In this document: piece by piece, positions 2,675 through 16,485 of the stretch
Position numbering within the stretch: position 1 is the first letter of the stretch
Layout: each line of letters opens with the position of its first letter
Assembly (NCBI GenBank): GCA_002305475.1
Contig: DBRB01000001.1
Location: 1-58,437 of the forward strand
Direction of reading: 5' to 3'
DNA length: 58,437 bases
Source: a candidate division WWE3 bacterium UBA1379
GTDB lineage: Bacteria > Patescibacteriota > WWE3 > UBA101185 > UBA10185
The notes under the pieces: generated by a model
Seen by the model: only the letters and a program-made list of their open reading frames with translations
What the model was told of the DNA's origin: nothing
Database searches by the model: none
Position numbers and translations under genes: made by a program

Positions 2675-2750
2675 TGGTGGGGGATATAAGATTCGAACTT
2701 ATGACCCCTCGGATGTAAACCGAGTGCTCTAACCGCTGAGCTAATCCCCC
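2675..2750 (-). tRNA. tRNA-Val (anticodon UAC), CCA encoded
   Basis: Reverse complement is GGGGGATTAGCTCAGCGGTTAGAGCACTCGGTTTACATCCGAG...GTTCGAATCTTATATCCCCCACCA. Anticodon loop TTTACAT. Confidence 0.9.
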
Positions 2751-2788
2751 GCTCTGAATTTGCCCTAACATTATACAATCTGGGATGG

Positions 2789-2825
2789 AAAAAAAGTAGC
2801 CCCTCATAGATAATACTATAAGGGG
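2789..2825 (-). terminator. rho-independent terminator candidate for the 2834-3169 gene
   Basis: On the minus strand, CCCCTTATAG-tattat-CTATGAGGGG forms a 10-bp stem with one U-G wobble that only pairs on this strand. It is followed by CTACTTTTTTT. Confidence 0.6.
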
Positions 2826-2833
2826 TTTTAGCT

Positions 2834-3169
2834 TCATACCTTTTGAGACAAAAATTCAACTATGAACCCGAAAATAGCTATAAGTATAGTTATCATATAA
2901 CGAATTACTATGAAATAGTTAATAAATCCTATTAAAAACCACTGAAAAATCGATTTTTCTGACTGTTTTGAAGTATAAAAGAAACCGACCGTAAATCCAG
3001 CTAATAAATTACATATTACCAATACCGCTGGAATTGTATGCATATATAATAACGGTCTATTTAATATCCATTTATTAACTGCCATGTCTAAAACTATCAC
3101 CAAAACCGTAAAAGCAGACAATCCGTAAATGTATGCATTAATCCTAGTTTGAGAGTACTTAGACTCCAT
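2834..3169 (-). CDS. small multi-pass membrane protein, unknown function
   Basis: Hydrophobic ORF. I prefer the start at ATG 3167-3169 (MESKYS...) because AAGGAGGAG lies just upstream and it avoids overlap with the 3234 gene. The ORF track extends to 3274. Confidence 0.55.
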   Translation of the reverse strand: MESKYSQTRINAYIYGLSAFTVLVIVLDMAVNKWILNRPLLYMHTIPAVLVICNLLAGFTVGFFYTSKQSEKSIFQWFLIGFINYFIVIRYMITILIAIFGFIVEFLSQKV

Positions 3170-3233
3170 TTTCTCCTCCTTTTCATTCATATTCAGTTTT
3201 ACATATCTCTCTGGAGTATTATACCATATAAGC

Positions 3234-4166
3234 ATGAAATTATGGGCTCTTTCTAAAGTATTATATATACTCATAATATTTATCCTGTTAGTAATTGCCT
3301 TAGTATTTTCAAAAGATCTTTTTATATATCATCTAAATAACATTGGTAATAATGGTGATAAATCACAATATTATGAAGAGATTACTCATGAATTGAGTGA
3401 AAACCAAATCAATTATGAAGATATATCGGTTGAACAGCAAACAGATTTTGATGAATTAGTTTCAAATTTACGTAAATATAAGGGACAATACTCACTCTAT
3501 ATTAAAAACCTTGAGGATCATGCTGAGGAGTATAGATATCAGGAAAACAAAAAGTACTATGCAGCCTCTTTATATAAAGTACCGGTAGCGGTATCGATTT
3601 TAAAGGAGATTGACAGGGGAAATATTTCATTGGATACAAAAGTTGAATACAAAAAAGAGGATACAGCTGATGGTACCGGCGTAATTTATCACTCTCCTAC
3701 AGGAACTAAATATTCAGTAGAAAGTATTTTATCTTTTCTATTAAAACAGTCGGATAACACCGGACAAAATATACTAATGCGTTCCTTTTCTAAAACCACT
3801 TCTGAACAGGCATTCTCCTTAGTCAATAGACTGAGTGATTTCCATGCTAAAAATATCACATCGGCAAAGGAATATTCCGATTTTCTTATGACCATTTATG
3901 AGGGTGATTATCTTACGGAAGAATCAAAAGGATATTTGTTTGATTTAATGAGTAATACGTCTTTTGATGATTGGATAGCAGATAAATTTAATAAAGATAT
4001 GATATTTGCTCATAAAATCGGGAGTTGGCCGGGAAGTTTTCATGATTGTGGAATATTATTTTATCCGGATAAAAAATATGTTTTATGCATGATGTCAGAA
4101 AACAGTACACTGGAGGAATTTAAGTTAGTCTCAGAGGACGTAGCAGAATTTATGAATATTTTGTAA
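3234..4166 (+). CDS. class A beta-lactamase-like serine hydrolase, membrane anchored
   Basis: S-x-x-K (SLYK), SDN (KQSDNTG) and a KTG-like HKIGSW motif in the expected order. N-terminal hydrophobic anchor. Confidence 0.65.
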   Translation: MKLWALSKVLYILIIFILLVIALVFSKDLFIYHLNNIGNNGDKSQYYEEITHELSENQINYEDISVEQQTDFDELVSNLRKYKGQYSLYIKNLEDHAEEYRYQENKKYYAASLYKVPVAVSILKEIDRGNISLDTKVEYKKEDTADGTGVIYHSPTGTKYSVESILSFLLKQSDNTGQNILMRSFSKTTSEQAFSLVNRLSDFHAKNITSAKEYSDFLMTIYEGDYLTEESKGYLFDLMSNTSFDDWIADKFNKDMIFAHKIGSWPGSFHDCGILFYPDKKYVLCMMSENSTLEEFKLVSEDVAEFMNIL

Positions 4167-4243
4167 GTTACTCTATAGCTACCGACCCCTCATTAATCAT
4201 TTCATATATCTGACTCTTGACTATTTCTGAATTGGAAACATTT

Positions 4244-4483
4244 CTAATCTCCAATAGCGTTATTTGTTTTTCTAGATGGTGTCCAAAACTTAGTTTTTGG
4301 AGCTAACCTTCTAAGTTCTTCCTCTATCTTTATTAGCTGTCTATTCTCAGCTAACAGCTCTTTATGTATCCTTTCTTTCATCTGTCCAATGTATTTAATC
4401 GGGTCTTCTACATACTCTGATTTTTTAGGTCTTCCGGTACTATTGTTGGCGTAATATTTTGAGTAATCAATTACTATTTTCAC
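4244..4483 (-). CDS. hypothetical protein (coiled-coil-like, basic)
   Basis: 79-aa ORF. Its GTG start overlaps the stop of the upstream ORF (GTGA), which suggests translational coupling. Confidence 0.4.
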   Translation of the reverse strand: MKIVIDYSKYYANNSTGRPKKSEYVEDPIKYIGQMKERIHKELLAENRQLIKIEEELRRLAPKTKFWTPSRKTNNAIGD

Positions 4484-4683
4484 TTCTGATCACTTCCCTT
4501 TATGTATCTTCTTTCAAAAATCTTATGAATCTTAGATATTCGTTGTTTAATTAGTGGTGGATCAAATAAATTACCAACAACATCTAGCTTCATGCCTTTT
4601 TCTACGCACTCACATATCTGCTTGTTTATTTTGTAGTATTCCTTGAATGTAAATCTTGATTTATGAGTTAGAATGTCGGCCAT
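4480..4683 (-). CDS. hypothetical small protein
   Basis: 67-aa ORF coupled to 4244-4483. No motif recognised. Confidence 0.4.
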   Translation of the reverse strand: MADILTHKSRFTFKEYYKINKQICECVEKGMKLDVVGNLFDPPLIKQRISKIHKIFERRYIKGSDQK

Positions 4684-4760
4684 AGAAAAAGCCCCGCTTC
4701 ACACAGAACTTTTATTGACCCTTATTCTACATGGTGGACTATCATGAACGATGTTGTTAA

Positions 4761-5300
4761 CTATTTTACATCGAAGGAAGATACAAGTTGTTTCGCCAAA
4801 TTTGCATAATTAGACCCATGTGTTTCTACGTAAATTACATTACTTTGAGTTAATAATATATATTTTAAATAACCGGATGGAACAACGCCTATATAATCAT
4901 CATCAAAAGTAATTAGACTCCCCCATTGTTTCTTTTCTATAGAATAGTCTATATTTTTTGGGTCTATACATATGTAGTCATTACAAATATTCTTAACGTT
5001 AAAATCAGTATTATTATTTGATATAAATACCAATCCCCATAAAGCGGGTGACTCATCGTCAGAAAATCTTATATTTATAGAATTTGCAGATATGCTTCTT
5101 TTGGAGACTGTATCTGGATAAGAAAAGTTATTAAATAGTTCGGGTTTTTCTTCAGAAATTGTATCTTTGTTCACAGAATGTTTTTCTTTTGTGGATTTAT
5201 CATCTAGAATAGTTTTACCTAAATACAATGGTTTCAGTAGGAAGATATATGCGATTATGAGTAATAAAACAGGAATCGTGAGAAGCAAAAAAGTTTTCAT
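4761..5300 (-). CDS. hypothetical secreted/membrane-anchored protein
   Basis: 179-aa ORF with an N-terminal signal/anchor (MKTFLLLTIPVLLLIIAYIFLL). Confidence 0.55.
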   Translation of the reverse strand: MKTFLLLTIPVLLLIIAYIFLLKPLYLGKTILDDKSTKEKHSVNKDTISEEKPELFNNFSYPDTVSKRSISANSINIRFSDDESPALWGLVFISNNNTDFNVKNICNDYICIDPKNIDYSIEKKQWGSLITFDDDYIGVVPSGYLKYILLTQSNVIYVETHGSNYANLAKQLVSSFDVK

Positions 5301-5342
5301 ATATTAATTATACACACTATCAACAGCGGACAAGAATCTACA

Positions 5343-5393
5343 TTTGGTGGGACATCTGGGAGGAAGTTGTGAACTATTTTATGTCCCTCCAAG
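5343..5393. repeat. 13-nt imperfect inverted repeat in a divergent intergenic region
   Basis: TTTGGTGGGACAT (5343-5355) versus ATGTCCCTCCAAG (5381-5393), 11/13 complementary, core GGGACAT/ATGTCCC perfect. GC-rich relative to its surroundings. Confidence 0.4.
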
Positions 5394-5431
5394 AGGCCTA
5401 CTACATCCCAAGTTTATCATATAATTAACTT

Positions 5432-6046
5432 ATGCTTATAAATTACCCGGTTGAGGATAGAACAATAAGCCAACATTTTGGCGTTGATAACACAAATGAC
5501 CCCGCTAAGGGGGATTTCTATACTGTATTTGGTAATAAACATCCTGGTGTGGACTTTCCCGTTCAGGAAGGCACCGAGGTTTTCGCTTCATTTCCGGGTA
5601 TTGTCGTAAGAAACGAGTACCACAAAGGGATGGGGAATGTCATAGGTATTAGGAATGGGAATATTGTGGCACTATATGCGCACTTGAGCGAAGCAACGAT
5701 TAAGGCTGGCCAAATAGTAAAAGACAGGGAATTGATTGGGCTATCTGGTGCGACAGGAGATGCCTGTTTAAGCCCGCACCTGCATTTTGAACTGAGAGAT
5801 ATTTCTAAACCGTCTCTAAAAGACATGGTATTTGAACCTATTTTTGGCAAAGAAATTCTGCAATACGCGGACACCTTTATTTATTCAGTAAACAACAAAA
5901 ATACCAAGAAAACATTAGTAAACCTTTCTAAACTGTACTATGGAACGGATTCATATTGGCAAAAGATTAACGAATCTAATGGTTTTGCATATGAAAAAGA
6001 TGAAATATTAAGCGATGGTCTTAGCGTTATTATCCCAAATTATTAG
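5432..6046 (+). CDS. M23 family metallopeptidase (LytM-type) with a LysM-like tail
   Basis: HPGVDF (HxxxD) and PHLHFE (HxH) motifs. The C-terminus resembles LysM (YGTDSYWQKINESNG). Confidence 0.7.
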   Translation: MLINYPVEDRTISQHFGVDNTNDPAKGDFYTVFGNKHPGVDFPVQEGTEVFASFPGIVVRNEYHKGMGNVIGIRNGNIVALYAHLSEATIKAGQIVKDRELIGLSGATGDACLSPHLHFELRDISKPSLKDMVFEPIFGKEILQYADTFIYSVNNKNTKKTLVNLSKLYYGTDSYWQKINESNGFAYEKDEILSDGLSVIIPNY

Positions 6047-6665
6047 CACTCAGCAGGTGATTAAAAAACTCGTAAGTAGGTTTGGAGTTATAAGCATATT
6101 CAAACTTTTCAAAAATACCCTCATCTTGATTAATACCCTTTATTGATTTGAGAAATTCGAGAAATTTATTCTTGCCGAAAGTATCCACCAGCAGCTTAAT
6201 AGCAAAGCCTGCCTCATTATAGTTTCTCTCATCTGTAAGGAATTTGGAAAACGCGTCCGGTACCTTGTATTTATCAAGCTGATCGGCAATAAACAAAGAT
6301 GTACCTTCAGTTAGCCAGTTTGGTTTTGTATGGTAGCAGATACTTCTGTAGAAACAATGACAGAGCTCATGCTTAATAAGTTTTTTAATATCATCTTCGT
6401 TATATTTATGCGTGCTCTCTTGTGCGATGTTGTCGGGGTTTAGGATTATTATTGCGTTTTTCGTCCAAGTCCAGCCTACGGACCAAGCAGGAGTTTCCTT
6501 TTCAAGAAATGAGTCGATAGTTTTTCGGTCATCCACAATGAAGATTTTTGGGGTGTCTTTTGCCCACTTAATATCAAAAAATTCGTTAAGATCTTGCATG
6601 GCCGTTTCATATGCCTCGTTTATTAATGTGTTTTCCTTGGAATGTATGCTGAAGGTTGGTATCAC
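6030..6665 (-). CDS. MA-clan (gluzincin-like) metallopeptidase-like protein
   Basis: HELCH (HExxH) followed 18 residues later by NWLTEG, the spacing seen in Peptidase_MA_2-type proteins. Overlaps the M23 gene end by 17 nt. Confidence 0.5.
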   Translation of the reverse strand: MIPTFSIHSKENTLINEAYETAMQDLNEFFDIKWAKDTPKIFIVDDRKTIDSFLEKETPAWSVGWTWTKNAIIILNPDNIAQESTHKYNEDDIKKLIKHELCHCFYRSICYHTKPNWLTEGTSLFIADQLDKYKVPDAFSKFLTDERNYNEAGFAIKLLVDTFGKNKFLEFLKSIKGINQDEGIFEKFEYAYNSKPTYEFFNHLLSANNLG

Positions 6666-6705
6666 GCAGTAATTATAAACTATTATGACTGAAAATGGAG
6701 GTGTG

Positions 6706-6745
6706 TTGATACTGAGCCATATTATAGGTATTTTGGTGATATAAT
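6706..6745 (+). promoter_or_regulatory. promoter candidates upstream of the small peptide gene
   Basis: TTGATA (6706-6711), 17 nt, TATTTT (6729-6734). An extended -10 TGaTATAAT lies at 6737-6745. Motif match only. Confidence 0.35.
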
Positions 6746-6808
6746 GTGTGCAGGATACAGCATGAGGATGATTCTGCTGTTGACAATCTACAGAAAGGAG
6801 AGTGCGTC

Positions 6809-6943
6809 ATGGCCGGTGAAAACATTCTTAAGGCCGAGATGGAAGCCATCCAAACCCAGACAGAAGCCGATGCCGCCTACAACGTCTACATTGACGATTA
6901 CGGCAATTATGGCAACTGGATGGACTGCAACGACTGGCATTAG
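6809..6943 (+). CDS. 44-aa candidate RiPP precursor peptide (MAGENILKAEMEAIQTQTEADAAYNVYIDDYGNYGNWMDCNDWH)
   Basis: ATG 6809 lies 8 nt after AAAGGAGAG. It is 113 nt upstream of, and on the same strand as, a radical SAM/SPASM gene. Helical acidic N-terminal part; aromatic, Asn/Asp-rich C-terminal part. Confidence 0.7.
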   Translation: MAGENILKAEMEAIQTQTEADAAYNVYIDDYGNYGNWMDCNDWH

Positions 6944-6971
6944 CCTGCTTGCCTGGCGACCATCGATAGAT

Positions 6972-7014
6972 AGAGGGAGGTAGGAAACCTTAAACAAGTA
7001 GCTTACCTTCCTCT
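6972..7014 (+). promoter_or_regulatory. intergenic stem-loop between peptide and maturase genes
   Basis: AGAGGGAGGTA (6972-6982) pairs with TACCTTCCTCT (7004-7014): 11 bp with one G-U that only pairs in a plus-strand RNA. 21-nt loop, no T-run after it. Confidence 0.5.
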
Positions 7015-7056
7015 GTCGTTCAACTCAAACGCTCAGAATCGGAAAAGGAGACAGAC

Positions 7057-7440
7057 ATGAAAGGCAAATTGGTCATCATGAAGCCTGTCTCAATCGCTTG
7101 CAACGGCAAGTGTGACTACTGCTACAATCTCTCCGTGAACTTCCGCACTCGTCGTGCAATTCCAAAGATGAGCGTGGAGACGGTAGAACGTGTAGAGCGT
7201 GGATTAATTGAGATAGGAATGGAACGCATACGACTGGTGTGGCACGGAGGTGAACCGCTCCTAAGAGGACTACCTTTCTATAAGGCAGTAATGGAGCAAC
7301 AGGCTCGGATTCGAGCTGAATACCCCGCCCTACGCCTGGAAAACGGTATGCAATCCAATCTAACCCGTCTCACGCCAGAGTGGTGCGAGTTTCTGAAGGC
7401 GAATCACATCATGGTCGGGAGCAGCCTCGATGGGTGGTAA
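7057..7440 (+). CDS. radical SAM enzyme, N-terminal part (AnSME-like core), ends at an in-frame TAA
   Basis: KPVSIACNGKCDYCY (CX3CX2C), GGEPLL, SSLDG motifs. GGAG lies upstream of ATG 7057. Same frame as 7483-8178. Confidence 0.75.
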   Translation: MKGKLVIMKPVSIACNGKCDYCYNLSVNFRTRRAIPKMSVETVERVERGLIEIGMERIRLVWHGGEPLLRGLPFYKAVMEQQARIRAEYPALRLENGMQSNLTRLTPEWCEFLKANHIMVGSSLDGW

Positions 7441-7482
7441 GAAGTACATGATGCCCACCGCAAATATCCCGACGGCACAGGT

Positions 7483-8178
7483 ATGTTCAACGACGCAATT
7501 CGTGGAATGGAACTGGCGAGTAAGTACGGCATCCTCGGCGGAATCATTGCTGTGGTAACCGACGTTACGGTCATGCAAGACCCCGCCAAGTTCTTCGACT
7601 ACCTGGTTAATGTATGTCCGAGAGCAGAAAATACGCCCTGCTGGGATGTGGGAAGCGATGGAGAAAAGCCCGCTTACACAGTAGAGAGCCAGGCGTTTCT
7701 CGACTTTACTACGGCAATGTTCGACCACTACTGGAAACTCGACGACCCGCAACGCAGGATGCGAATGTTTCACGGATTCATTCAGGGACTCCTGGGTGGC
7801 AAGGAACTTACTTGTTCATTCAAGGGAAACTGTGGTGACTTCCTGTCGGTGGAAGCTGACGGTAGCATCTATCCGTGTGGCAAGTTCTCTGGCGTACCTG
7901 AGTTCTATCTCGGCAATATCAATGAGCAGCCGTTGTCCGAGATTCTGGAAAATCCTGTGTACGAGGCATGGCTCAACCAGCGTTCCTGCATACCTCAGAA
8001 GTGTCAGGGTTGTAAGTTCGCCCAAGCCTGTAACAACGGTTGCACTTATGAGCGGTATCAAGGGAACGGTCAGTTCGCAGAGCTTTCTCCCTACTGCGAT
8101 GTGTGGTACGGTCTTTACGAGCATATCGGTGGTCGCATTACCGAACTTCAGACCGCACTCGAAGCACAGAAAGCCTAA
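7483..8178 (+). CDS. radical SAM enzyme, C-terminal part with SPASM domain (continuation of 7057-7440)
   Basis: CGDFLSVEADGSIYPCGKF and CQGCKFAQACNNGC (CX2CX5CX3C) SPASM signatures. In-frame codons 7441-7482 read EVHDAHRKYPDGTG, the expected DG-x4-HD-x2-R continuation. Confidence 0.75.
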   Translation: MFNDAIRGMELASKYGILGGIIAVVTDVTVMQDPAKFFDYLVNVCPRAENTPCWDVGSDGEKPAYTVESQAFLDFTTAMFDHYWKLDDPQRRMRMFHGFIQGLLGGKELTCSFKGNCGDFLSVEADGSIYPCGKFSGVPEFYLGNINEQPLSEILENPVYEAWLNQRSCIPQKCQGCKFAQACNNGCTYERYQGNGQFAELSPYCDVWYGLYEHIGGRITELQTALEAQKA

Positions 8179-8185
8179 GTTTGAA

Positions 8186-8234
8186 AGAGCCAGGTTTCAA
8201 AAACCTTGAGATCTGGCTCTAGTCTTTAATTTTT
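8186..8234 (+). terminator. terminator-like hairpin at the right edge of the GC-rich island
   Basis: AGAGCCAG (8186-8193) / CTGGCTCT (8213-8220) perfect 8 bp, 19-nt loop, followed by AGTCTTTAATTTTT. Confidence 0.45.
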
Positions 8235-8750
8235 ATGAAAAGAACACTTATCGAACCAACTAAATATATAAAAGAACTAATTAAACGTGAGAATGTAGGC
8301 AAAGGTGTAGTTGATATTTTAAAGTTCCAGAACAGTATTAAACTGGTGGATAAACACGAATTAATAAATAAACTTTTTAACCAGAGAACGGCGGAAGAAA
8401 TTTTAAAAGATGGTTTTGTAACCGGATGCACCGATGATGCCATTGTTTTTTTAGCACTCTTAAAGGCTCTAGGGGTAGAAGCTGTTTATGTTGAATCTCT
8501 CGAAAAAAGCTGGCTGGATGCACCTATGAATGAGCAGATGATTAGAGGACATGCATTTGTAAAAGTGGGAGAATTGTTAATCGACCCGCAACGTAAGGTA
8601 ATATACATAGATCCTAACTGGATAAAGAATCGTTACGTTATCTACGCAGAAGGAACCGAACCGTACGAATTTGGTTTAACAGGCTTCCGTGAGATGGTAC
8701 AAAAATTCATGGATTTCAAAGAATCTTACAAACAAAACAATAACAATTAA
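8235..8750 (+). CDS. transglutaminase-like cysteine peptidase superfamily protein
   Basis: Cys-His-Asp arrangement: GCTDDA ... RGHAFVKV ... LIDP, as in transglutaminase-core proteins. 171 aa. Confidence 0.5.
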   Translation: MKRTLIEPTKYIKELIKRENVGKGVVDILKFQNSIKLVDKHELINKLFNQRTAEEILKDGFVTGCTDDAIVFLALLKALGVEAVYVESLEKSWLDAPMNEQMIRGHAFVKVGELLIDPQRKVIYIDPNWIKNRYVIYAEGTEPYEFGLTGFREMVQKFMDFKESYKQNNNN

Positions 8751-8760
8751 TTATTTCCAG

Positions 8761-9051
8761 TTACATCAAGCCTAATTCACGCAGGAAACTTGGCAGAAAC
8801 ATATTTATAGCTGAAAGCGACATACCAATAATCGAAAGGTTTTTTAGTTTTGAAATCTGTTTAGTATCCAATATAAGTCTGTCTGATTTGGATAAAGCCA
8901 GTACGCAACCAGAATTTATCAATCCTAGCAATGGGCTTATCCAACTAACTAGGCATAAAAATGCCAACACGTTAGCAGTCCTAACGCTTTTTATATATTT
9001 TGAAAGAAATCCGCCTACCTTAATCCAGACGAAGAATAAAACCACTCTCAA
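8761..9051 (-). CDS. doubtful ORF (hydrophobic 96 aa, TTG start, no RBS)
   Basis: Only an alternative start codon, no Shine-Dalgarno, and a plus-strand hairpin plus T-run inside it. May be non-coding. Confidence 0.2.
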   Translation of the reverse strand: MRVVLFFVWIKVGGFLSKYIKSVRTANVLAFLCLVSWISPLLGLINSGCVLALSKSDRLILDTKQISKLKNLSIIGMSLSAINMFLPSFLRELGLM

Positions 9052-9129
9052 AGCAAGTTTGAGTGTTAGTAACTCATTTAGACTGATTAAATACTAAATT
9101 CCAAGTCCAACTAATACAGGAACAATTTT

Positions 9130-9282
9130 AAAAACTGTAGACTTTTTGTTTTCTTGCATGAATGCCTTTCCGGGTTGTCGAAATACAACAAGGGGCAACC
9201 CTCGTCTACAGCCGCTAAGCATTCAACCGCAGGGTTGCCCCTTGTTACGGTTGAATGCACCTTTCGGCTTTTAGCGGCTGTT
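9130..9282. other. GC-rich nested inverted-repeat element (candidate structured RNA switch or recombination site)
   Basis: Perfect helices: 9187-9202/9231-9246 (16 bp), 9208-9218/9271-9281 (11 bp), 9219-9229/9248-9258 (11 bp), 9135-9142/9204-9211 (8 bp). The first crosses the next two, so they are mutually exclusive. Confidence 0.55.
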
Positions 9283-9318
9283 AAATTATGAAATTATTAT
9301 ATCACCGGGGAAGGATAT

Positions 9319-9990
9319 TTAGTTAGATTTGGTGTTGTTAAGCAAAATCTTAACTTCCTTAACTTCGTTTACAACTGTTTTGTTTGATAGTTTTGATTTA
9401 ATAAATCTGGTGCTGTTTTGAACATACGTATTTTTATTATCCGGTGTATTGCTTATAGTTTCTTTTAGAAAAACTACTAGATCGTCGTATAACTTTTTCA
9501 AGTCAATGTAAATTATCAATGGATGCGGCAATTTAACACCACTAACAGATTTAACAGGCACGCCGTATTCTTCTATCTTGTGCGTGTTATGACCAAAGGT
9601 TAAATACCACGTGACTATTTGTAACCCAACCTCTATCTGAGCTGGTTCGTCCCCATGTATTAACGAGTGCCTATAGAGATGCATAAAGATGTTTGGAAAT
9701 GTGATGCCAAGTTTTGATAGTAACCAATCCCTTGAATTGATGCCTTTCTTTTTAGGCAATATTTGTGCAATGTGCTCGATTGTGGGAGTTAATAGCCGGA
9801 TCATGGCAAAATATCCGAACTGGTAATTATTAGCAGCAGCTAGTTGTAAATAGCTTCCGGTGTCTTTCTCCAGTCTTTGTAAAATACCATTCAATTCTTG
9901 TTTCAGGGACTTTTTGTACTTGTAATAAATGATGCCCCGATCCTTCGAACGTTGAAGTTTTCGGTTTTTATATTCCGGATGCCTTGCCAT
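9319..9990 (-). CDS. hypothetical protein with an Rx4H (HEPN-like) motif
   Basis: 223-aa ORF. LYRHSLIHG (R107-H112) fits the HEPN ribonuclease signature R-[NHD]-x3-H. Its start lies 2 nt after the stop of the upstream ATPase remnant. Confidence 0.45.
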   Translation of the reverse strand: MARHPEYKNRKLQRSKDRGIIYYKYKKSLKQELNGILQRLEKDTGSYLQLAAANNYQFGYFAMIRLLTPTIEHIAQILPKKKGINSRDWLLSKLGITFPNIFMHLYRHSLIHGDEPAQIEVGLQIVTWYLTFGHNTHKIEEYGVPVKSVSGVKLPHPLIIYIDLKKLYDDLVVFLKETISNTPDNKNTYVQNSTRFIKSKLSNKTVVNEVKEVKILLNNTKSN

Positions 9991-9992
9991 GG

Positions 9993-10470
9993 TTATTTTG
10001 CTTTCAGGCTGTATTTATATACTCTTTTGTTGAAAGCCTCTTCCCCGCCTTCAAGAATCTCACAAGCATGTTCTCTGATACCACATTTTTCTAAAACGCA
10101 ATCTACCTTAACTGTAGGCTTCGTGTTCTCTAATGATCCTGAACAATAGTCGAAAAGTTGTCCGTTTCTATTCTTTCGATCAGAATCGTGTCGGTTTGCC
10201 ACAATCAGTTGTTCTGCATCGGCGCCTACAACTAAATTGGCATTATGGCTAACCATTATTATTTGTCTTTCTTTTTTCTTTTCCTTTAAAAACGCGACAA
10301 TGCTTTCATAAATTGATCGACTATCCAAATCGTCTTCCGGCTGATCTATTAAAAGAGGCCATGTATCTGTCGATTCATCTCAGAAGTATTAAACCTTGAA
10401 ACTGAACGAGTCGGAATGGAAGAATGCTTTGTCTGTGCAGAAAACGGCGTGTTGAAAAATATCGTTCCTA
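9993..10470 (-). pseudogene. 5'-truncated, frameshifted ABC/SMC-type (RecF/OLD-like) ATPase remnant
   Basis: Only the C-terminal part survives: WPLLIDQPEDDLD (Walker B/D-loop), QIIMVSHNANLV (H-loop), ILEGGEEAF tail. A TGA lies just upstream in frame, and a signature-like FSAQTK is in another frame. It runs up to the tRNA-Phe 3' end. Confidence 0.6.
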
Positions 10471-10472
10471 CA

Positions 10473-10548
10473 TGGTGGAGCAGGTGGGAATCGAACCCAC
10501 ATAGCCGGTTTTTCAGACCGGTGCCGTGACCAACTTGGCTACCGCTCC
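10473..10548 (-). tRNA. tRNA-Phe (anticodon GAA), CCA encoded
   Basis: Reverse complement is GGAGCGGTAGCCAAGTTGGTCACGGCACCGGTCTGAAAAACCGG...GGTTCGATTCCCACCTGCTCCACCA. Anticodon loop CTGAAAA. Confidence 0.85.
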
Positions 10549-10639
10549 ATGCAAGCATACTAATAACGTAGCTATTTTATCAGTTCTTTTAACTTTTTTC
10601 TATGGATAGTATGATAATAGAAATAATTGTTTTAATGAT

Positions 10640-10715
10640 TGGAGCGAGAGACGGGGCTCGAACCCGCGACCTTCTCCATGGCAAGGAGATGCTCTACCAA
10701 TTGAGCTACTCTCGC
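10640..10715 (-). tRNA. tRNA-Gly (anticodon GCC), CCA encoded
   Basis: Reverse complement is GCGAGAGTAGCTCAATTGGTAGAGCATCTCCTTGCCATGGAGA...GGTTCGAGCCCCGTCTCTCGCTCCA. Confidence 0.9.
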
Positions 10716-10747
10716 AAATAGCACAAGTATTTTATCACAAGGAAGGC

Positions 10748-12451
10748 TTACCAGCTACCGCCTCCGCCACCCCCACCTCCTCCGCCGGAAAATCCTCCTC
10801 CGGATGACCCACTTCTGGTAGTGGATATGGAGGAACTGGCTGCCTGCGAAAAACTGTGAGATAAGGCACTAAATGATGAAAAGCTAAATGCCTGTCCACT
10901 TGAGCTTTCATACCATTCTGGTTGCTGGATCTTAATATCTGAAAATCTTTTTATCCAGACATCCTCTACACCGAATGCAGTAGCATAAGGTAAAAGCTTT
11001 TCAAAAAACATCTGATTCTGGGCCTGAAAGTCCAGTTTTTCATCCTGAGAAACCAGAAATTTTTTCAGAGATTTTGCTTCGCCATATTTTTCTATACCCA
11101 GCTGAGTTCTTTTTGCGGTTTGAGATGCCAGGTATGCTGCAATAATCATAAAGATATTCAGTGTAGGAAAAGCTAAACCGAACAGTACCATGAATAATGT
11201 ATGTGTTTTTTGAGGATTTTCTTTAAATAATCCCTTCATAATCAATCCTTGGGTAACTTTTTCCTGAAAAGTAAGTAAGGAAGTACCAAACGCCCTATTT
11301 TTTGAGAGTTCGTTGATACTAACTACATTGTTATTGCTTTTACTATGAATATTTATAAAAAGGTACTCCTCAAAGTTAGATAAGCCTTCCGCACTGTCTT
11401 TTAGAAAATGCAGTTCATAGTCATCTTTACCGAATATCCCTGATTTCGGTTTACTAACAATTTTCCAATACCCCTTTTGGGCCATCTGGATAATTGTTGC
11501 TGTAATATCCTTATGATCTACTGTTTTATCAAGTAATACCGATGTTTCAGCCGGAGACAAAAACTTATTATTCTTATCTTTAGGAGGATCAAACCAGGCA
11601 GCTACTACTCTGGCATTCTGGTTCTCTTTCCTATATGAGATATATCTGGCAATAAATATAATAGGAAGAACTAAATACCATGCAATTGCAGCTAAACCTA
11701 GAAAGATCCACAGTAATATTTGTCCGACTCCCGGTTTTTCCTCCTCCGGCATTAATATCGTCACATTTCCTTTTGGAAAACCTGTGGCGACAGTAAACCC
11801 TTCTCCGGGTCCCAATGGTTTAGTTAATGTGTAAGATACGGTTTTTGTTATCTGGTCATATCTGAACGTACAGGCAGTCTCCTGTGACCCGTAGGCACCC
11901 GTATAGCAGCTGTTTTGAATTTCATCTTCTGTAAAATTATTCGGAAGAATAACCTGAACACTCGATCTTTCTATGGGGATTTCCCAGTCAGTTCCAATAG
12001 CATCCCAGTATATTTCATCATATTCAGCGAAATATCCTAAAGCACCTGATACTTTATACTCTACGTGATAAGTAATATTCCCCGTAACGGTTTTGTTCGG
12101 ATCTCCTATTTTTAGGACAATATCACCATTCTCTTTGCTAACCCGATACTTTATGGATCTTCCTTGCGGATCTGTAACCGAATAATTGCTTAACTTCATG
12201 GCCAGGGTTTTACCGGCTTCATCGTTTAATCTATAGGGAATTTTTCTGAATATTCCATGCCTGTCATCCGGAAAGAAATATTCAATATCTTCCGACACAT
12301 TTATTGTTCCGTCGGTGTTAATCCTAATATCTACATTATATGAATTTATTTTTTCTATTGATGTGTCTAAAGCAAAAACACCGGATGTGTAAAAAATAAA
12401 TAATGGAATGGAAAGAATTACAGAATATAAGAATATTTTAAATGTTTTCAT
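10748..12451 (-). CDS. DUF2207-like membrane protein with a poly-Gly C-terminal tail
   Basis: 567 aa. Signal/anchor, large extracytoplasmic N-domain, several TM segments, and a terminal SGGGFSGGGGGGGGGGSW typical of DUF2207 proteins. Confidence 0.65.
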   Translation of the reverse strand: MKTFKIFLYSVILSIPLFIFYTSGVFALDTSIEKINSYNVDIRINTDGTINVSEDIEYFFPDDRHGIFRKIPYRLNDEAGKTLAMKLSNYSVTDPQGRSIKYRVSKENGDIVLKIGDPNKTVTGNITYHVEYKVSGALGYFAEYDEIYWDAIGTDWEIPIERSSVQVILPNNFTEDEIQNSCYTGAYGSQETACTFRYDQITKTVSYTLTKPLGPGEGFTVATGFPKGNVTILMPEEEKPGVGQILLWIFLGLAAIAWYLVLPIIFIARYISYRKENQNARVVAAWFDPPKDKNNKFLSPAETSVLLDKTVDHKDITATIIQMAQKGYWKIVSKPKSGIFGKDDYELHFLKDSAEGLSNFEEYLFINIHSKSNNNVVSINELSKNRAFGTSLLTFQEKVTQGLIMKGLFKENPQKTHTLFMVLFGLAFPTLNIFMIIAAYLASQTAKRTQLGIEKYGEAKSLKKFLVSQDEKLDFQAQNQMFFEKLLPYATAFGVEDVWIKRFSDIKIQQPEWYESSSGQAFSFSSFSALSHSFSQAASSSISTTRSGSSGGGFSGGGGGGGGGGSW

Positions 12452-12458
12452 TTTTGTA

Positions 12459-12545
12459 TGGTGGGCGAGACAGGACTTGAACCTGCACGGGTTTTACCCC
12501 ACAACGACCTCAACGTTGCGCGTATACCAATTCCGCCACTCGCCC
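12459..12545 (-). tRNA. tRNA-Leu (anticodon GAG), long variable arm, CCA encoded
   Basis: Reverse complement is GGGCGAGTGGCGGAATTGGTATACGCGCAACGTTGAGGTCGTTG + variable arm + GGTTCAAGTCCTGTCTCGCCCACCA. Confidence 0.9.
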
Positions 12546-12605
12546 AAAAAGTCTTTGCAGACAGTATTATACAATAAAAACACTCAAAGGTCAGTCACTG
12601 ATATA

Positions 12606-13550
12606 ATGATAGGTATGAGTCTAAAAGAACAGAATATTTCTCTGGATAACTACACATATCAATATTACAGCAGTACATACAGGGAAAACTTCCCAGTATT
12701 AATCATGCTTCATGGAATTGCCGCTAGTAAAGATTTTATGATGGAATTAGCCAACACTCTTAGTGAAACATATAATTGTTTTCTTCTTGATCTTCCAGGT
12801 CACAATGGTTTAGAACTAAACGGTATTGAAAAGTTTGATGATTTTGCCGAGTATTTAAAGAAATTTATCTCATACATCAACCCGAAGGAGTTTTGCATTT
12901 TAGGATATTCACTTGGCGGTATGATAGCCTTAAAGTATGCTGAAAACTATGCTGACATTGATATGCCAAAATTATCTAAGGTTGTAGTCTGGTCCAGTCC
13001 TGTATTGGGTTTTAATAACGGATTAAGTACCCTTGTTAAAGCATCCCTTCCAATAGTGAACAGCATTCCAAATGATTTATTTGATTCAGTGGCAAAAAAT
13101 AAAAAAATCATTGAATATCTTAATCAGGCACTTAAAATTGCAGGGACGTACGGTCCCGTTCCTGTTGAACCGTTATCTAAATTCAGTCTAGAAAATGCTA
13201 AAAGAATCATCAATATATCTACACTGGTAAACTTTGAAATAAACTTACATACCCCGGTTTTATATATCTTTGATAAATATGATCCGATCGTCCATCCAAA
13301 AAATTACCTGTATGTAAATAATAATCATAACCCTACAACCTCTAAAGTAGTACTAGTTAACCGTGGTGGACATTTTAAAAACAGAAATGGTTTTTCAAGG
13401 GTAAAAGAGGAAATTGGAAAGTTTTTAGAAACTAATAATAAGATATCTGGTGCCGAAGGTGGGACTCGAACCCACACTCCCTTACGGGAACTGCCTCCTG
13501 AAGACAGCGAGTCTGCCAATTCCTCCACTTCGGCTTACGCCCAGAAATAA
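12606..13550 (+). CDS. alpha/beta hydrolase fold protein
   Basis: GYSLGG nucleophile elbow; HG oxyanion region (IMLHGIA). Start set to ATG 12606, downstream of tRNA-Leu(GAG). The last ~34 codons run antisense through tRNA-Leu(CAG). Confidence 0.65.
   Translation: MIGMSLKEQNISLDNYTYQYYSSTYRENFPVLIMLHGIAASKDFMMELANTLSETYNCFLLDLPGHNGLELNGIEKFDDFAEYLKKFISYINPKEFCILGYSLGGMIALKYAENYADIDMPKLSKVVVWSSPVLGFNNGLSTLVKASLPIVNSIPNDLFDSVAKNKKIIEYLNQALKIAGTYGPVPVEPLSKFSLENAKRIINISTLVNFEINLHTPVLYIFDKYDPIVHPKNYLYVNNNHNPTTSKVVLVNRGGHFKNRNGFSRVKEEIGKFLETNNKISGAEGGTRTHTPLRELPPEDSESANSSTSAYAQK
13448..13534 (-). tRNA. tRNA-Leu (anticodon CAG), long variable arm, CCA encoded
   Basis: Reverse complement is GCCGAAGTGGAGGAATTGGCAGACTCGCTGTCTTCAGGAGGCAG + variable arm + GGTTCGAGTCCCACCTTCGGCACCA. 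Confidence 0.9.
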
Positions 13551-13601
13551 TAAGGCTATTTTATCTTTATATCAATACTTTGGCAATTTGGGATAAATAT
13601 G

Positions 13602-14309
13602 CTAAAAGTACTCTCTTATGAAAAGATATCCCAGAGTAGATATACCGTTAATAATGACATGTATGACTATTCCGGGAACAATTGATCCTGTTCTTCGGTA
13701 TAAAAATGCTAACATCAAACTTAGAATTAAGATAGGAATAAAAACTGTCGGAATCTGGTGTAATAATGAGAAAAGTATTGAACTTGAGAGAGCAGCTGTA
13801 ATAAATCCGAATCTATTCCAGAAATAATTTAAAAGAAATCCTCTAAACAATAGTTCTTCCGTTAAAGGAGCTAAGAAAACTACAAAGAATATCAGAAAGG
13901 CATTATTATTTAAACTATCAAACAAAGGGAGTAAATAATTTGATTGATGATAGTCAACAAGGCCTAAAATTAATATTATGACATTATAGAAGATATTGAA
14001 TATATAAAACACACCCAGATAACCAAGTCCATGAAGCATGTCAATAATCTTGATTTTTCTCAGGCCAAGATCCGAAAAAGAGTAATTCTTTGTTCCTAAC
14101 ACAGCAAGTACTATATATATTAAAATAAGCAGATCGAATACGGCAGATAAGATAAAAAGCTGTGTTACCGTAAGATCTACAGGCAGACGGTATTTAATGA
14201 CGGTAATCATTACCATAATAGTTAATAGGAATAGACCTATCGAATTGAATCCCTTGCTAAATATTTTTGGTTTATTTAATTCGAATCTATTATTACTCAT
14301 CTTGAGCAT
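13602..14309 (-). CDS. CPBP family intramembrane glutamic endopeptidase (CAAX protease-like)
   Basis: TEELLFRGFLL, FSLLH and HVIINGI motifs in a polytopic membrane protein. Confidence 0.75.
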   Translation of the reverse strand: MLKMSNNRFELNKPKIFSKGFNSIGLFLLTIMVMITVIKYRLPVDLTVTQLFILSAVFDLLILIYIVLAVLGTKNYSFSDLGLRKIKIIDMLHGLGYLGVFYIFNIFYNVIILILGLVDYHQSNYLLPLFDSLNNNAFLIFFVVFLAPLTEELLFRGFLLNYFWNRFGFITAALSSSILFSLLHQIPTVFIPILILSLMLAFLYRRTGSIVPGIVIHVIINGISTLGYLFIREYF

Positions 14310-14362
14310 AATACACGATAATATTAAGAGTAACTAATTATTATGAGAAAATATTGAAAGAT

Positions 14363-14395
14363 TGGTGGGGGAAACTTTATGACCTCGAATTAAAC
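14363..14395 (-). other. possible degenerate tRNA-Val 3'-half relic
   Basis: TGGTGGGGGA is identical to 2675-2684, followed by ACTTTATGACC-TCGAA versus ACTTATGACCCCTCGGA in tRNA-Val, with the T-arm segment deleted. Confidence 0.3.
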
Positions 14396-14472
14396 ACTTT
14401 TGACGAGTTCCAATGGGTTCTGACTTTTAGTAACTTATACGTTTAGTATTTATTATGAACAGGTAAATTAGA

Positions 14473-14503
14473 GGTCACACTAAGAATATTTTCTTGTGTG
14501 ACC
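14473..14503 (-). terminator. hairpin downstream of the 14525-14713 gene
   Basis: GGTCACAC (14473-14480) / GTGTGACC (14496-14503) perfect 8 bp, 15-nt loop. Only a weak T-rich tail on the minus strand. Confidence 0.35.
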
Positions 14504-14524
14504 TTGGGATAGGGTACTTATACG

Positions 14525-14713
14525 TCACTTTACAACTATGGCGAGATCATATCCTCGTGTTTTAAGATATGCTAGTACTTTGTCGGTGCCTTCCGCTGGT
14601 TCTACCTTTATCTTACCTGATCCAATGTCAACCGGAATAATTTTACAGTTTAGTTCCCTACTCGTTTCACTCATGATCGCTTGGTTGTATGTTCCCCACA
14701 AAACTATAATCAT
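14525..14713 (-). CDS. small hypothetical protein (62 aa)
   Basis: AAAGGAG lies 8 nt upstream of the ATG. Composition is globular, not low-complexity. Confidence 0.5.
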   Translation of the reverse strand: MIIVLWGTYNQAIMSETSRELNCKIIPVDIGSGKIKVEPAEGTDKVLAYLKTRGYDLAIVVK

Positions 14714-14830
14714 TCTACTACTCCTTTTCTTGGAATATGAAGGGGGTTGATAATAAATCTATAGGCCTTGTTGTACTGACAAATGTATTATAGAACAAAA
14801 GGAAAATAACACCTATAGGTTTGTTTATTT

Positions 14831-14905
14831 TGGTGAAGGCGGTGAGATTCGAACTCACGACCAAGGGATTAAGAGTCCCCTGCTCTACCACTGAGCTACG
14901 CCTCC
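14831..14905 (-). tRNA. tRNA-Lys (anticodon CUU), CCA encoded
   Basis: Reverse complement is GGAGGCGTAGCTCAGTGGTAGAGCAGGGGACTCTTAATCCCT...GTTCGAATCTCACCGCCTTCACCA. Confidence 0.9.
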
Positions 14906-14973
14906 AGTATTGTGAAAAGAGCCTGATAACTTTGATATTTTACAACAAAACTGAAATTATTTGAATATACCGC

Positions 14974-15393
14974 TTAAATTAGGCTTTCAATATTACCCAG
15001 AAGGTCAATATAATAAAAATTAATAGGTATCTTTATCTCATATTCATTAAATAGGATATATCTGGCTTTCTGAGCACATTCTTTATGCCGGATGAAGTCT
15101 TCTTGTTTAGAAAGACCATTAGGGATTAAATTGTCGGATGCGTAACCTCCACAATCCTGATGATCGAAAACCAGAATTTCATGGGGAGAATGAAGGTCTA
15201 AAGATATTTTTAGTTGTCTAATTAAGTTTTGTAAATATATCTCATTTTCTGGTTTGACTATATCTCTAAGACTACCTGCTATGCTTATATGATCATATTT
15301 ACCAACATAATTACTAGACTCTAGCCACCTCATTAAAGTGCGTTGAATGCGAAAATCAATACAGGATATTATTAAAGCTTTTGCTTTATGCAT
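14974..15393 (-). CDS. beta-carbonic-anhydrase-like small protein
   Basis: SCIDFR (CxDxR) and HQDCGGY (HxxCG), the zinc-ligand pattern of beta-class carbonic anhydrases. At 139 aa it is shorter than canonical enzymes. Confidence 0.4.
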   Translation of the reverse strand: MHKAKALIISCIDFRIQRTLMRWLESSNYVGKYDHISIAGSLRDIVKPENEIYLQNLIRQLKISLDLHSPHEILVFDHQDCGGYASDNLIPNGLSKQEDFIRHKECAQKARYILFNEYEIKIPINFYYIDLLGNIESLI

Positions 15394-15550
15394 AAATTTA
15401 AAGAATCAAAAACCAATAGTTATAATACCATAGAAATAACTTAATCAAATTAATTACTGTTTCCTTATATAATTATTAACCGATACATGTATGCTAATAT
15501 ACTTTACTGAGAGCTCAATGATTTGATCAGATGATATTTAGGAGGGAATA

Positions 15551-15928
15551 ATGATAATCAGGCTTGCAATTGTAGAAGATGATGAAGCCGTAAGAATTAC
15601 GCATGAGGCATTTTTCTTGTCAGCGATACATGACATCATAGTTACAACATATAAAAACGGGCAGGATCTTATAGATGCATTAAAAAAGGGAGAGTGGTTT
15701 CATGGTGTGTTAATGGACGGGAAGCTTCCTGACGGGGTTACAGGACCGGAATATACCCATATGATTAAGGAGATATACCCTGAGACTATTATCATCGGTT
15801 ATTCTTCAGACATATCGCTCAAAGACTCTTTTCTTGATAAAGGAGCCGATGCATTCTTTCTAAAGATAACATCAATAAAGGAACTGTATGATCTCGCAGA
15901 TAAGATTGAGGGAGTACTTAGGAAGTAA
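15551..15928 (+). CDS. single-domain response regulator (CheY-like receiver)
   Basis: VEDD acidic pocket, phospho-acceptor-like D in VLMDGKLPDG, 125 aa, TAGGAGGG RBS. Confidence 0.7.
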   Translation: MIIRLAIVEDDEAVRITHEAFFLSAIHDIIVTTYKNGQDLIDALKKGEWFHGVLMDGKLPDGVTGPEYTHMIKEIYPETIIIGYSSDISLKDSFLDKGADAFFLKITSIKELYDLADKIEGVLRK

Positions 15929-15937
15929 TGATAATTT

Positions 15938-15980
15938 ACGCTATGAATATCCGGTCACCGATTTCATAGCGTATTTTTAT
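15938..15980 (+). terminator. rho-independent terminator of the response regulator gene
   Basis: ACGCTATGAA (15938-15947) / TTCATAGCGT (15963-15972) perfect 10 bp, followed by ATTTTTATTT. Confidence 0.7.
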
Positions 15981-16058
15981 TTATGGTAGTTGATATCGTG
16001 CTATGATAGTATATTTTGAGTTAGTTACCGTTATTCTGACAGTAATAATGGAGGTGAG

Positions 16059-16366
16059 ATGATAAACAAAAAAGATAAGATTAACAATATTCTGTCATTC
16101 TTTGAAAAGGAAGGTAAAGTTTTACGAAAAGGACCATTCAAAAATGAAAGGAGCTTTTCACAAATTTTTACGGGGTTGGATTATATTTTCTTCCTTAATG
16201 CATAAATAGTATTAACGGATTATTTGAGCAAGAAGGAATATCGGGTTTTCTTGATCTTGCTACTGTTAACTCAGATCTTAACGATAATATAGTGTGTTTC
16301 TATGAGTATAGCGGGGGAATTAAATTAGAAGGCGGAGAATACTTTGTCATGCTTAGAAATGTATAG
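16059..16366 (+). pseudogene. frameshifted small gene (SMI1/KNR4-SUKH-like impression)
   Basis: ORF 16059-16205 (GGAGGTGA RBS; ...GLDYIFFLNA*) continues sensibly in the next frame at 16208-16366 (SINGLFEQEG...FYEYSGGIKLEGGEYFVMLRNV*). Confidence 0.35.
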
Positions 16367-16381
16367 CTTATAAAACACTAA

Positions 16382-16428
16382 AAGCTGTCAGCACATTTGT
16401 TAAAACGCTGGCAGCTTCTTTATTATTA
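16382..16428 (+). terminator. rho-independent terminator candidate
   Basis: AAGCTGTCAGC (16382-16392) / GCTGGCAGCTT (16407-16417), 11 bp with one U-G wobble valid on the plus strand, then CTTTATTATT. Confidence 0.5.
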
Positions 16429-16485
16429 AATCACAGAAAAATTACATATTATTAATAGATTATAGGGTTATTAGTTAATTAAAAA

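Follow-up and report, generated by a model that had tools for sequence, protein, structure and literature searches.

A GC-rich precursor and maturase segment with a probable recombinational history of its own in a putative peptide operon of a candidate division WWE3 bacterium

Contig DBRB01000001.1 of the candidate division WWE3 bacterium UBA1379 (GenBank assembly GCA_002305475.1), analyzed here over the whole stretch of 58,437 nucleotides that we call the window, carries a sharply delimited tract rich in guanine and cytosine (GC). The tract (6750-8180) has a GC of ~0.50 compared with 0.35 for the host and spans the gene of a short precursor peptide, a spacer and the gene of a radical S-adenosylmethionine (rSAM) enzyme. 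We judge it reasonably probable that this island represents the precursor and maturase half of a three-gene operon for a peptide that is synthesized ribosomally and modified post-translationally (RiPP), swapped in by recombination and with a maturase that is probably inactive. A sequence-only reading of the same DNA had proposed a recently acquired, minimal RiPP-type cassette from a much GC-richer donor. The underlying observation is confirmed and the interpretation is partly supported: the locus appears to be a RiPP cassette in which the GC-rich half has its own history of recombination; the cassette is not demonstrably recent and has probably been inactivated here.

Over positions 6700-8222 the GC amounts to 0.503, which makes this stretch the top GC window of the 58 kb (z = 5.7); the remaining windows of 1523 bp average 0.351, with a standard deviation of 0.026 and a maximum of 0.424. 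On 50-bp windows, GC rises at ~6750-6800 and falls at 8175-8225. The GC at third codon positions (GC3) reaches 0.578 (z 5.9) in the rSAM gene and 0.689 (z 8.2) in the peptide gene, compared with 0.293 ± 0.048 for 52 host open reading frames (ORFs), and the excess resides mainly at synonymous positions. The non-coding spacer between the two genes is likewise GC-rich (0.487), and the tetranucleotide profile of the island is the strongest outlier within the window (z 5.9). Computed in this way, the sharp island claimed from the letters alone is borne out.

The proposed flip in codon choice toward the GCC, GAC, CTC and CGT types is equally apparent from codon fractions, with GCC at 0.40 in the island (host 0.19), GAC at 0.68 (0.21), CTC at 0.35 (0.04), CGT and CGC together at 0.62 (0.17) and AGA at only 0.10 (0.54). 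Amino-acid usage is also of a GC-rich type, with an arginine-to-lysine count of 21/18 on the rSAM side versus 7/18 in the protease encoded downstream. The long antisense ORFs that had been listed for the island do exist. Because these alternate-frame ORFs are no longer than in synonymous-codon shuffles (164 aa versus 128 ± 31 aa; p = 0.13), they follow from composition. This shuffle result and the saturation of synonymous sites between alleles also led us to reject antisense or overlapping genes as the source of the GC-richness. To the right of the island, six tRNA genes are scattered on the minus strand (10473-16560; Phe-GAA, Gly-GCC, Leu-GAG, Leu-CAG, Lys-CTT and Arg-TCG). They match the C/G-ending codons favored by the island (TTC, GGC, CTC, CTG, AAG and CGN), which is probably a coincidence.

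A sibling lineage offers a closer view on the ancestry of the tract. It is represented by three independent assemblies (L171, L172 and L173), which were aligned to window 5344-10380. The flanking genes and outer spacers are 87-94% identical to L171 at the DNA level, and identity falls to 78% in the peptide gene, 66% in the spacer between peptide and rSAM genes and 71% in the rSAM gene, so that the segment divergent from L171 (65-78% identity) coincides with the GC-rich tract. Synonymous divergence (dS) in the flanks amounts to 0.25-0.70; in the rSAM gene, the proportion of synonymous differences (pS) is 0.75 and thus saturated, with a ratio of non-synonymous to synonymous divergence (dN/dS) of 0.04. 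At the protein level, window and L171 share 90% identity in the protease and 74% in the rSAM enzyme, the reverse of all other pairs, in which the protease is more diverged than the rSAM enzyme. The L171 enzyme is closer to the relatives P0002 (78%) and L083 (76%) than to the window copy. At the level of sequence, these comparisons show a history apart from that of the flanks for the GC-rich half, namely the 3' part of the precursor gene, the spacer and the rSAM gene. Because rSAM divergence and affinities are discordant with the flanks in the sibling, at least one of the two lineages appears to have had its maturase segment replaced by a diverged allele via recombination at the existing locus. 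The GC-rich half would then have been swapped in at a pre-existing locus from a diverged relative, with no insertion into an empty site. The foreign ancestry proposed for the GC-rich part is in this sense upheld by the sibling, and the insertion of a new cassette gives way to allelic replacement.

The wider family clarifies what has been replaced. DNA was read for 12 distinct loci of the rSAM family, and the downstream gene was compared in 10 of them. In these 10 loci, which lie in different neighborhoods, the order precursor, rSAM gene, protease gene is shared, with a homologue of the window gene at 8235-8750 directly 3' of the rSAM gene each time (two of these loci are named WWE3). Since the three genes recur together and the genes beyond them vary between loci, the conserved unit consists of precursor, rSAM gene and third gene. 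The assignment as a RiPP-type cassette is strengthened by the conserved precursor next to the rSAM/SPASM maturase in every related locus. The description as minimal fails, given that a protease gene of host-like composition follows the rSAM gene in every locus compared. The operon is typical of a small family within the candidate phyla radiation (CPR), whose named members belong to candidate division WWE3.

The first gene (6809-6943, plus strand) encodes a 44-aa precursor peptide, MAGENILKAEMEAIQTQTEADAAYNVYIDDYGNYGNWMDCNDWH, conserved 5' of the rSAM gene across loci. Together with 8 others, it makes up a set of 9 distinct precursors, each located upstream of an rSAM gene wherever upstream DNA exists. 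The homologous peptides measure 43-59 aa. Their leader carries the motif MxGExILxAE(L/M)E, and the core ends in YG[ND]-W[MYF][DN]-Cx[DS]-[WY]H, a C-terminal motif shared by seven of the eight further peptides; the exception, from locus L183, is the most divergent. The aromatic-X-X triplets YG[ND] and W[MYF][DN] are kept in the 7 aligned precursors. Searches of the window precursor against Pfam and NCBIfam gave no match.

All of the elements that had been read around these genes, namely a promoter-like lead-in, a 44-aa ORF with a strong ribosome-binding site, a stem-loop, an rSAM/SPASM gene and a closing hairpin, are present as claimed. A promoter-like extended -10 element, TGATATAAT, lies on the plus strand at 6737-6745, 72 nt 5' of the precursor ATG; it is a match to consensus only, and TGnTATAAT is also found 5' of the precursor in L171, L083, L184 and L181. 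The Shine-Dalgarno sequence AAAGGAGAG (also given as AAAAGGAGAG; 6794-6802, plus strand) ends 6 nt before the ATG at 6809. Among the 10 loci read, the 8 closer ones carry GAAAGGAG(G) before the precursor ATG, with GGAAGGGAGG in L181 and GAGGAGG in L183 as variants. Between the two genes, a stem-loop with a 16-bp stem (6969-7017, plus strand) stands ahead of the rSAM Shine-Dalgarno sequence, AAGGAG, with a folding free energy (dG) of -36.2 kcal/mol (z -3.2). Strong stem-loops of other sequence occupy the same position in L171, L083, L163, L166 and L168. A terminator-like 15-bp hairpin with a weak T tail (8186-8220, plus strand) follows the rSAM stop at the right edge of the GC-rich tract and has equivalents in L171, L163, L166 and L168. 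For both the stem-loop and the hairpin, position is kept and sequence differs in all loci examined.

The second gene (7057-8178, plus strand; 373 codons, interrupted) encodes the radical SAM/SPASM peptide maturase. The rSAM motif CX3CX2C occupies residues 15-22 (C15-x3-C19-x2-C22), and eight SPASM cysteines (C253, C259, C274, C316, C319, C325, C329 and C347) are invariant in 18 sequences. Matches to PF04055 (1.1e-14), PF13186 (2e-10, 41 bits) and TIGR04085 (57.6 bits) all exceed their cut-offs, which by sequence makes the enzyme a member of the radical SAM superfamily with a SPASM domain; such domains bear a seven-Cys motif at the C-terminus for two auxiliary [4Fe-4S] clusters. The best NCBIfam model is that of the anaerobic sulfatase-maturating enzyme (anSME; TIGR03942), at 231.4 bits against a cut-off of 349.45. 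Among PDB entries, an anSME (4k36, E 3e-46) comes closest, along with ChlB, a triceptide synthase (9gm3, E 3.5e-19). A role as housekeeping anSME was rejected on the score below cut-off and on the conserved co-located precursor, and no sulfatase occurs among the 32 ORFs of this 58-kb window that were scanned with Pfam. A protein search returned ~20 relatives at 43-99% identity, followed by a gap down to anSME-like proteins at 30-34%. Three further close loci were all that scans of 185,579 genomes and of 241 million metagenome records contributed. Named carriers are candidate division WWE3 RBG_16_37_10 (P0014) and WWE3 CG23_combo_40_14 (L003). Separately from this family, L163 carries at 17068-18423 a second, unrelated radical SAM gene of 451 aa, 6 kb off the cassette, with GC 0.50 and GC3 0.53 in a host of ~0.41.

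The third gene (8235-8750, plus strand) encodes a 171-aa transglutaminase-like cysteine protease with the putative triad C65-H106-D117 and has the AT-rich composition of the host. C65 shows no variation in either alignment, and H106 and D117 show none among 7 close homologues; across 50 distant sequences the latter two are at least 90% conserved. PF01841 (Transglut_core) is matched at E <= 0.01 by 45 of 50 family members (best 1.3e-14), whereas the window protease alone reaches 14 bits against a cut-off of 23. The 50-sequence family profile recovers PDB entry 3isr (E 7e-5) with the Cys-His-Asp triad aligned; a PDB sequence search with a shallow profile of 7 protease sequences gave no match. 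An AlphaFold2 model (mean predicted local distance difference test score 69.7) returned 3isr, LapG and vasohibin at the top of a Foldseek search, with marginal support (E 1.5e-3, template-modeling score 0.48). The protease family is wider than the rSAM family, with 409 cluster representatives (E <= 1e-3), and among the 150 representatives listed its members are mostly ~180 aa and stand-alone. Lasso peptide pathways already have a transglutaminase-like leader peptidase (PMC10885120), and because of this precedent the product is a candidate leader peptidase of the pathway. In L181, the transglutaminase-like gene (4646-5173) stands out sharply as AT-rich (GC 0.32, GC3 0.23) against a host of ~0.48-0.50; the cassette there adjoins RuvABC, DnaA and DnaN, and its precursor and rSAM genes match host GC.

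Taken together, the elements suggest the following pathway. The promoter-like element and the strong ribosome-binding sites are present, and transcription would yield a message of precursor and rSAM gene, within which the conserved intercistronic stem-loop may favor the precursor over the enzyme. The anSME/DynA-like rSAM/SPASM enzyme would bind the leader at MxGExILxAE and then cross-link the C-terminal core, YG[N/D]-W-x-[D/N]-C-x-x-[W/Y]-H, by radical chemistry. Most likely, one or more three-residue cyclophanes linking an aromatic side chain to C-beta would form, as in triceptides, dynobactin and darobactin, with an expected loss of 2 Da per ring; the invariant Cys and the terminal [WY]H are possibly also involved in cross-linking. 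Finally, the transglutaminase-like Cys-His-Asp protease is predicted to cut off the leader.

In the window, however, this maturase is interrupted. Codon 128 is an in-frame TAA (7438-7440, plus strand) and reads CAA (Gln) in the near-identical contigs L001 and L002. The stop is single and without frameshift, and the remainder of the rSAM ORF is intact. Six differences separate the window from L001 and L002 in the island, and three of these are window-derived and protein-affecting: the premature stop, a change from S to N at 7610 and one from I to N at 7631. The two substitutions are non-conservative and hit the conserved stretch LVSVCPRAEITPCW, and all three changes go toward A or T. We read this pattern as a sign of relaxed constraint on a recently inactivated gene. 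Given the nonsense change and the two non-conservative changes, the maturase is probably inactive in this genome and the cassette would be on its way to being lost, as in other lineages. In the sibling L171/L172/L173, an independent in-frame TAA occupies codon 197 (PCW*TG; L171 7223-7225) in all three assemblies. Relatives have Glu or Asp at this codon, pointing to a change from GAA to TAA. Five Candidatus Brennerbacteria assemblies (L174-L178, ~7735-7955) retain only the last 67 codons of the rSAM gene, ahead of the protease gene. This remnant is 67% identical to P0001, has a GC of 0.49 versus 0.39 for the host, and is followed by a hairpin and then the transglutaminase-like gene. Three independent decay states of the cassette are thus observed.

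Several points weigh against the reading of a swapped-in and inactivated half-operon. The rSAM gene is higher in GC than the protease gene in 10 of 10 loci (by +0.08 to +0.20, mean 0.133), and its GC tracks that of the protease gene (r 0.65), not that of the host flank (r 0.24). With synonymous sites that are probably saturated, neutral amelioration in AT-rich hosts would be expected to have removed this step, unless there were many independent transfers in recent times. Searches of 5.8 billion proteins and of 185,579 genomes turned up no GC-rich donor, nor did 241 million metagenome records. No empty site came to light either, as homologues of the 171-aa protein led only to the sibling with its divergent allele and to Brennerbacteria with the remnant. 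No transporter or immunity gene adjoins the cassette, the chemistry and the role of the protease are deduced from sequence, and the TAA might stem from a sequencing or consensus error or represent a minority allele.

The GC step recurs across most of the family. In 8 of the 10 loci, the rSAM gene also lies above the host flank, by +0.09 to +0.16. In L179 (rSAM GC 0.383, flank 0.34) the excess is only +0.04, and in L181 the rSAM gene (0.457) lies 0.03 under its flank (host ~0.48-0.50), so that GC-richness of the rSAM gene is not obligatory. A general GC-richness of rSAM genes was rejected as explanation, as the deviation of other anSME-like genes of CPR is only -0.01 to +0.06 at most loci and a second rSAM gene in L169 is host-like. 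The rSAM alleles, at 52-67% protein identity, still have a GC3 of 0.47-0.67; their synonymous sites are probably saturated, as measured for the window-L171 pair only. Since the step recurs in lineages whose enzymes are this far apart, a one-off recent transfer does not explain it. The data require either many recent replacements of the rSAM gene only, drawn from a GC-richer source outside the sampled genomes, or a process that keeps the GC of this segment high. The near-identical contig sets contain 0-6 single-nucleotide polymorphisms per cassette, too few to polarise recent substitutions. A historical cause is favored by loci L179 and L181 and by the more basal position of the alleles found in GC-richer contexts (L181, L183); maintenance is favored by a step that is present in all 10 loci and co-varies with the partner gene.

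The alternative that survives best is that high GC belongs intrinsically to the precursor-rSAM module and is actively maintained there rather than left over from recent transfer, with the cassette mostly inherited or moved as a three-gene unit with a built-in step. We regard this as possible but clearly less probable than the swap. The means would be selection that acts on codon choice or on the transcript, or else a recombination hot spot with GC-biased gene conversion. Apart from the step in all loci and its tie to the protease gene, this explanation gains from the broadly concordant identity rankings of rSAM enzyme and protease (window-L171 pair excepted), from the sister alleles L184 and L185, each ~0.13 above hosts that differ in GC, and from the persistence of high GC3 among such diverged alleles. 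The L181 locus fits as well, as its AT-rich outlier protease gene next to a native-looking rSAM gene is what a built-in step would give. On the other side, the GC-rich non-coding spacer makes codon-level translational selection unfit as sole cause, and such selection is weakly rejected from the lower GC3 of the ribosomal protein genes for L10 and L7/L12 in L168 (0.33 and 0.45). Moreover, the excess is largely lost in L179, the dead Brennerbacteria remnant still has a GC of 0.49, and the window-L171 discordance indicates that replacement does occur. To our knowledge, the GC effect is far above the gene-conversion effects reported for bacteria, which also weighs against a maintained GC.

Somewhat more tentatively still, the module may be seen as holding its GC 8-20 points higher than that of its partner gene, and usually higher than that of the host, across a dozen CPR lineages at about 50-65% protein identity, which would imply a non-neutral, segment-specific process. 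One candidate is gene conversion biased toward GC, at a hot spot where recombination swaps alleles time and again; another is selection for host-rare C/G-ending codons that gates expression of the peptide pathway. Streptomyces secondary metabolism is under bldA/TTA control, which codon gating here would mirror. If true, AT-biased mutation acting on such a GC-rich gene would also account for the repeated knock-outs by TAA (from CAA and, as deduced for the sibling, from GAA).

A functional rSAM enzyme in the window, with the TAA as an assembly or sequencing error or a minority allele, or bypassed via readthrough or a split enzyme, appears doubtful. It would be in line with the single stop in an ORF that is otherwise intact and free of frameshifts, with the CAA in both near-identical contigs, and with the sibling L171, where an ATG two codons after its TAA makes a split or restarted, two-piece enzyme conceivable. 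However, TAA is the main stop of the host and ends 34 of 52 ORFs, which rules out stop-codon reassignment, and two more non-conservative changes sit at conserved positions of the window copy. The earliest restart lies 15 codons after the TAA, and an enzyme starting there would be without the invariant H131 and R135.

We consider it improbable that a minimal two-gene cassette was inserted once and recently into an empty site from an unrelated donor of much higher GC. The strong deviation in GC3, codons and tetranucleotides, the sharp edges and the GC-rich type of amino-acid usage all speak for it. The sibling, however, carries at this very site an allele that has diverged, and the search with homologues of the 171-aa protein revealed no empty site. 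Relatives above 43% identity whose context was read (two of them named WWE3) all reside in low- to mid-GC sequence of 0.31-0.50, and the next ones are only 30-34% identical. The conserved partner gene at 8235-8750 is not GC-rich. No integrase or transposase gene was found in or at the edges of the island, and searches for flanking direct repeats gave chance-level matches only. The nearest tRNA gene, tRNA-Phe at 10473-10548, lies 2.25 kb to the right. The absence of these features had been read correctly from the sequence alone; the recent acquisition from a much GC-richer donor is unproven, with no donor found and the step recurring in relatives.

L001 (window 5345-10502) and L002 (5345-9257), from other Joint Genome Institute (JGI) metagenomes, are 99.7% identical to the window across both junctions. 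A GC jump can come from mis-joins and the best model match is anSME, yet an assembly chimera, which the sequence-only reading had held as its alternative, is ruled out by these independent assemblies from other samples, and, with the anSME score under cut-off, no sulfatase in the scanned ORFs and a conserved co-located precursor, either a chimera or a housekeeping anSME instead of a peptide maturase is most improbable.

Upstream of the cassette, on the minus strand, lies the divergently transcribed gene of a 211-aa HExxH protein (6030-6665) with a weak match to Peptidase_MA_2 (PF13485, 28 bits, under cut-off), a neighbor of the cassette that is frequent though not constant. Homologues occur at the same position in L171 (92% identity) and L163 (44%), and the gene is shared only by the window and these two; it is absent upstream of the cassette in L166, L168 and L181. 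In WWE3 RBG_16_37_10 (L184, 1-1664), the DNA directly upstream of the cassette encodes a 554-aa large serine recombinase whose domains are Resolvase, Recombinase and Zn_ribbon_recom; this is the only locus with such a neighbor. An Rfam scan of the window returned tRNAs only.

The surroundings of the cassette vary between strains, and the interval from tRNA-Val to tRNA-Phe (2.7-10.5 kb) of the window differs among them. The 2.6 kb between tRNA-Val and the block shared with relatives contain a class A beta-lactamase-like ORF (3234-4166, plus strand; PF13354, E 6e-46). This stretch (2750-5344) looks like a strain-specific insertion, because the tRNA-Val homologue in L171 is only ~165 bp from the shared block. 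L001 differs from the window left of 5345 and leaves it again inside the 3' end of tRNA-Phe (window 10479-10490; L001 5588-5694), continuing as a different tRNA-like 3' half. Departing on both sides, this 99.7%-identical strain holds the shared 5.1-kb block in different surroundings. In the gap between the minus-strand ORFs 8761-9051 and 9319-9990, a very stable element of nested hairpins (9160-9290, minus-strand fold; dG -59.5, z -6.9) has possible alternative pairings ACAAGGGGCAACCC / GGGTTGCCCCTTGT and gave no Rfam gathering hit; L002 departs from the window inside it, at 9257. Farther right, a 380-aa alpha/beta-hydrolase ORF (12408-13550, plus strand) overlaps two antisense tRNA-Leu genes (12459-12545 and 13448-13534), and its true start is probably internal.

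Judged from its sequences, the cassette is an rSAM/SPASM-modified, aromatic-rich peptide system in which the precursor and maturase family is uncurated and the protease partner unusual. It represents a RiPP family in CPR whose precursor motif is clear, whose maturase scores under all curated cut-offs and whose protease partner is new, with P0001 as the intact allele. Full-text searches of the literature returned no account of rSAM-modified peptides in WWE3 or in other CPR/Patescibacteria. The locus also offers a clean natural case for weighing amelioration against maintained composition, with an exact GC step at a gene boundary, repeated in about ten diverged loci, and one replacement event demonstrated. 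It illustrates that a GC island alone is not evidence of recent or foreign insertion.

Among known systems, the lasso peptide B proteins (C96) set a precedent for the predicted role of the third gene product, as transglutaminase-fold Cys-His-Asp proteases that remove a RiPP leader (PMC10885120). The window protease differs in that its Pfam matches are to PF01841 (below cut-off) and DUF553-type models, with no lasso B among them, and no lasso cyclase is present at the window cassette. The closest overall sequence relative of the maturase is anSME, with an end-to-end match to 4k36 and the same two auxiliary clusters. In contrast to anSME, it scores below the equivalog cut-off and has a conserved small peptide gene upstream, with no sulfatase in the scanned ORFs.

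The darobactin and dynobactin maturases DarE, DarW and DynA resemble the window system in that they too are anSME-like rSAM/SPASM enzymes with a short precursor directly upstream that carries an aromatic-rich C-terminal core. DynA (NF041298) is the best-scoring RiPP maturase model, with 189 bits over its full length and an end-to-end match in which the motif starts from residue 15. As in DynA, the window enzyme is without the long N-terminal extension that a RiPP recognition element (RRE) domain would need. All scores remain far under the cut-offs (DynA 189 of 450, DarE (NF038005) 124 of 650, DarW 144 of 650). The window core motif, YG[ND]W.[DN]C..[WY]H, differs from those of dynobactin and darobactin, and the hosts are CPR rather than Gram-negative Proteobacteria. 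ABC transporter genes accompany the dar operon; the window cassette is without them and has a transglutaminase-like protease partner instead. DarE is itself most similar to anSME yet makes cyclophanes (PMC10288494).

With regard to triceptides, the models of the synthases XyeB, GrrM/OscB, FxsB and YhhB give 79-131 bits, all under their family cut-offs of 310-450 (FxsB 131 against 370, YhhB 128 against 445, GrrM/OscB 125 against 310), and the cross-links of the window peptide are predicted from its sequence. We know of no triceptide counterpart of the invariant Cys and the C-terminal [WY]H of the window family. The likeness lies in the match of the enzyme to ChlB and in the core itself: the defining feature of triceptides is a link from an aromatic residue to C-beta within aromatic-X-X motifs, and the window precursor displays two such triplets, YGN and WMD, in succession (PMC11499958).

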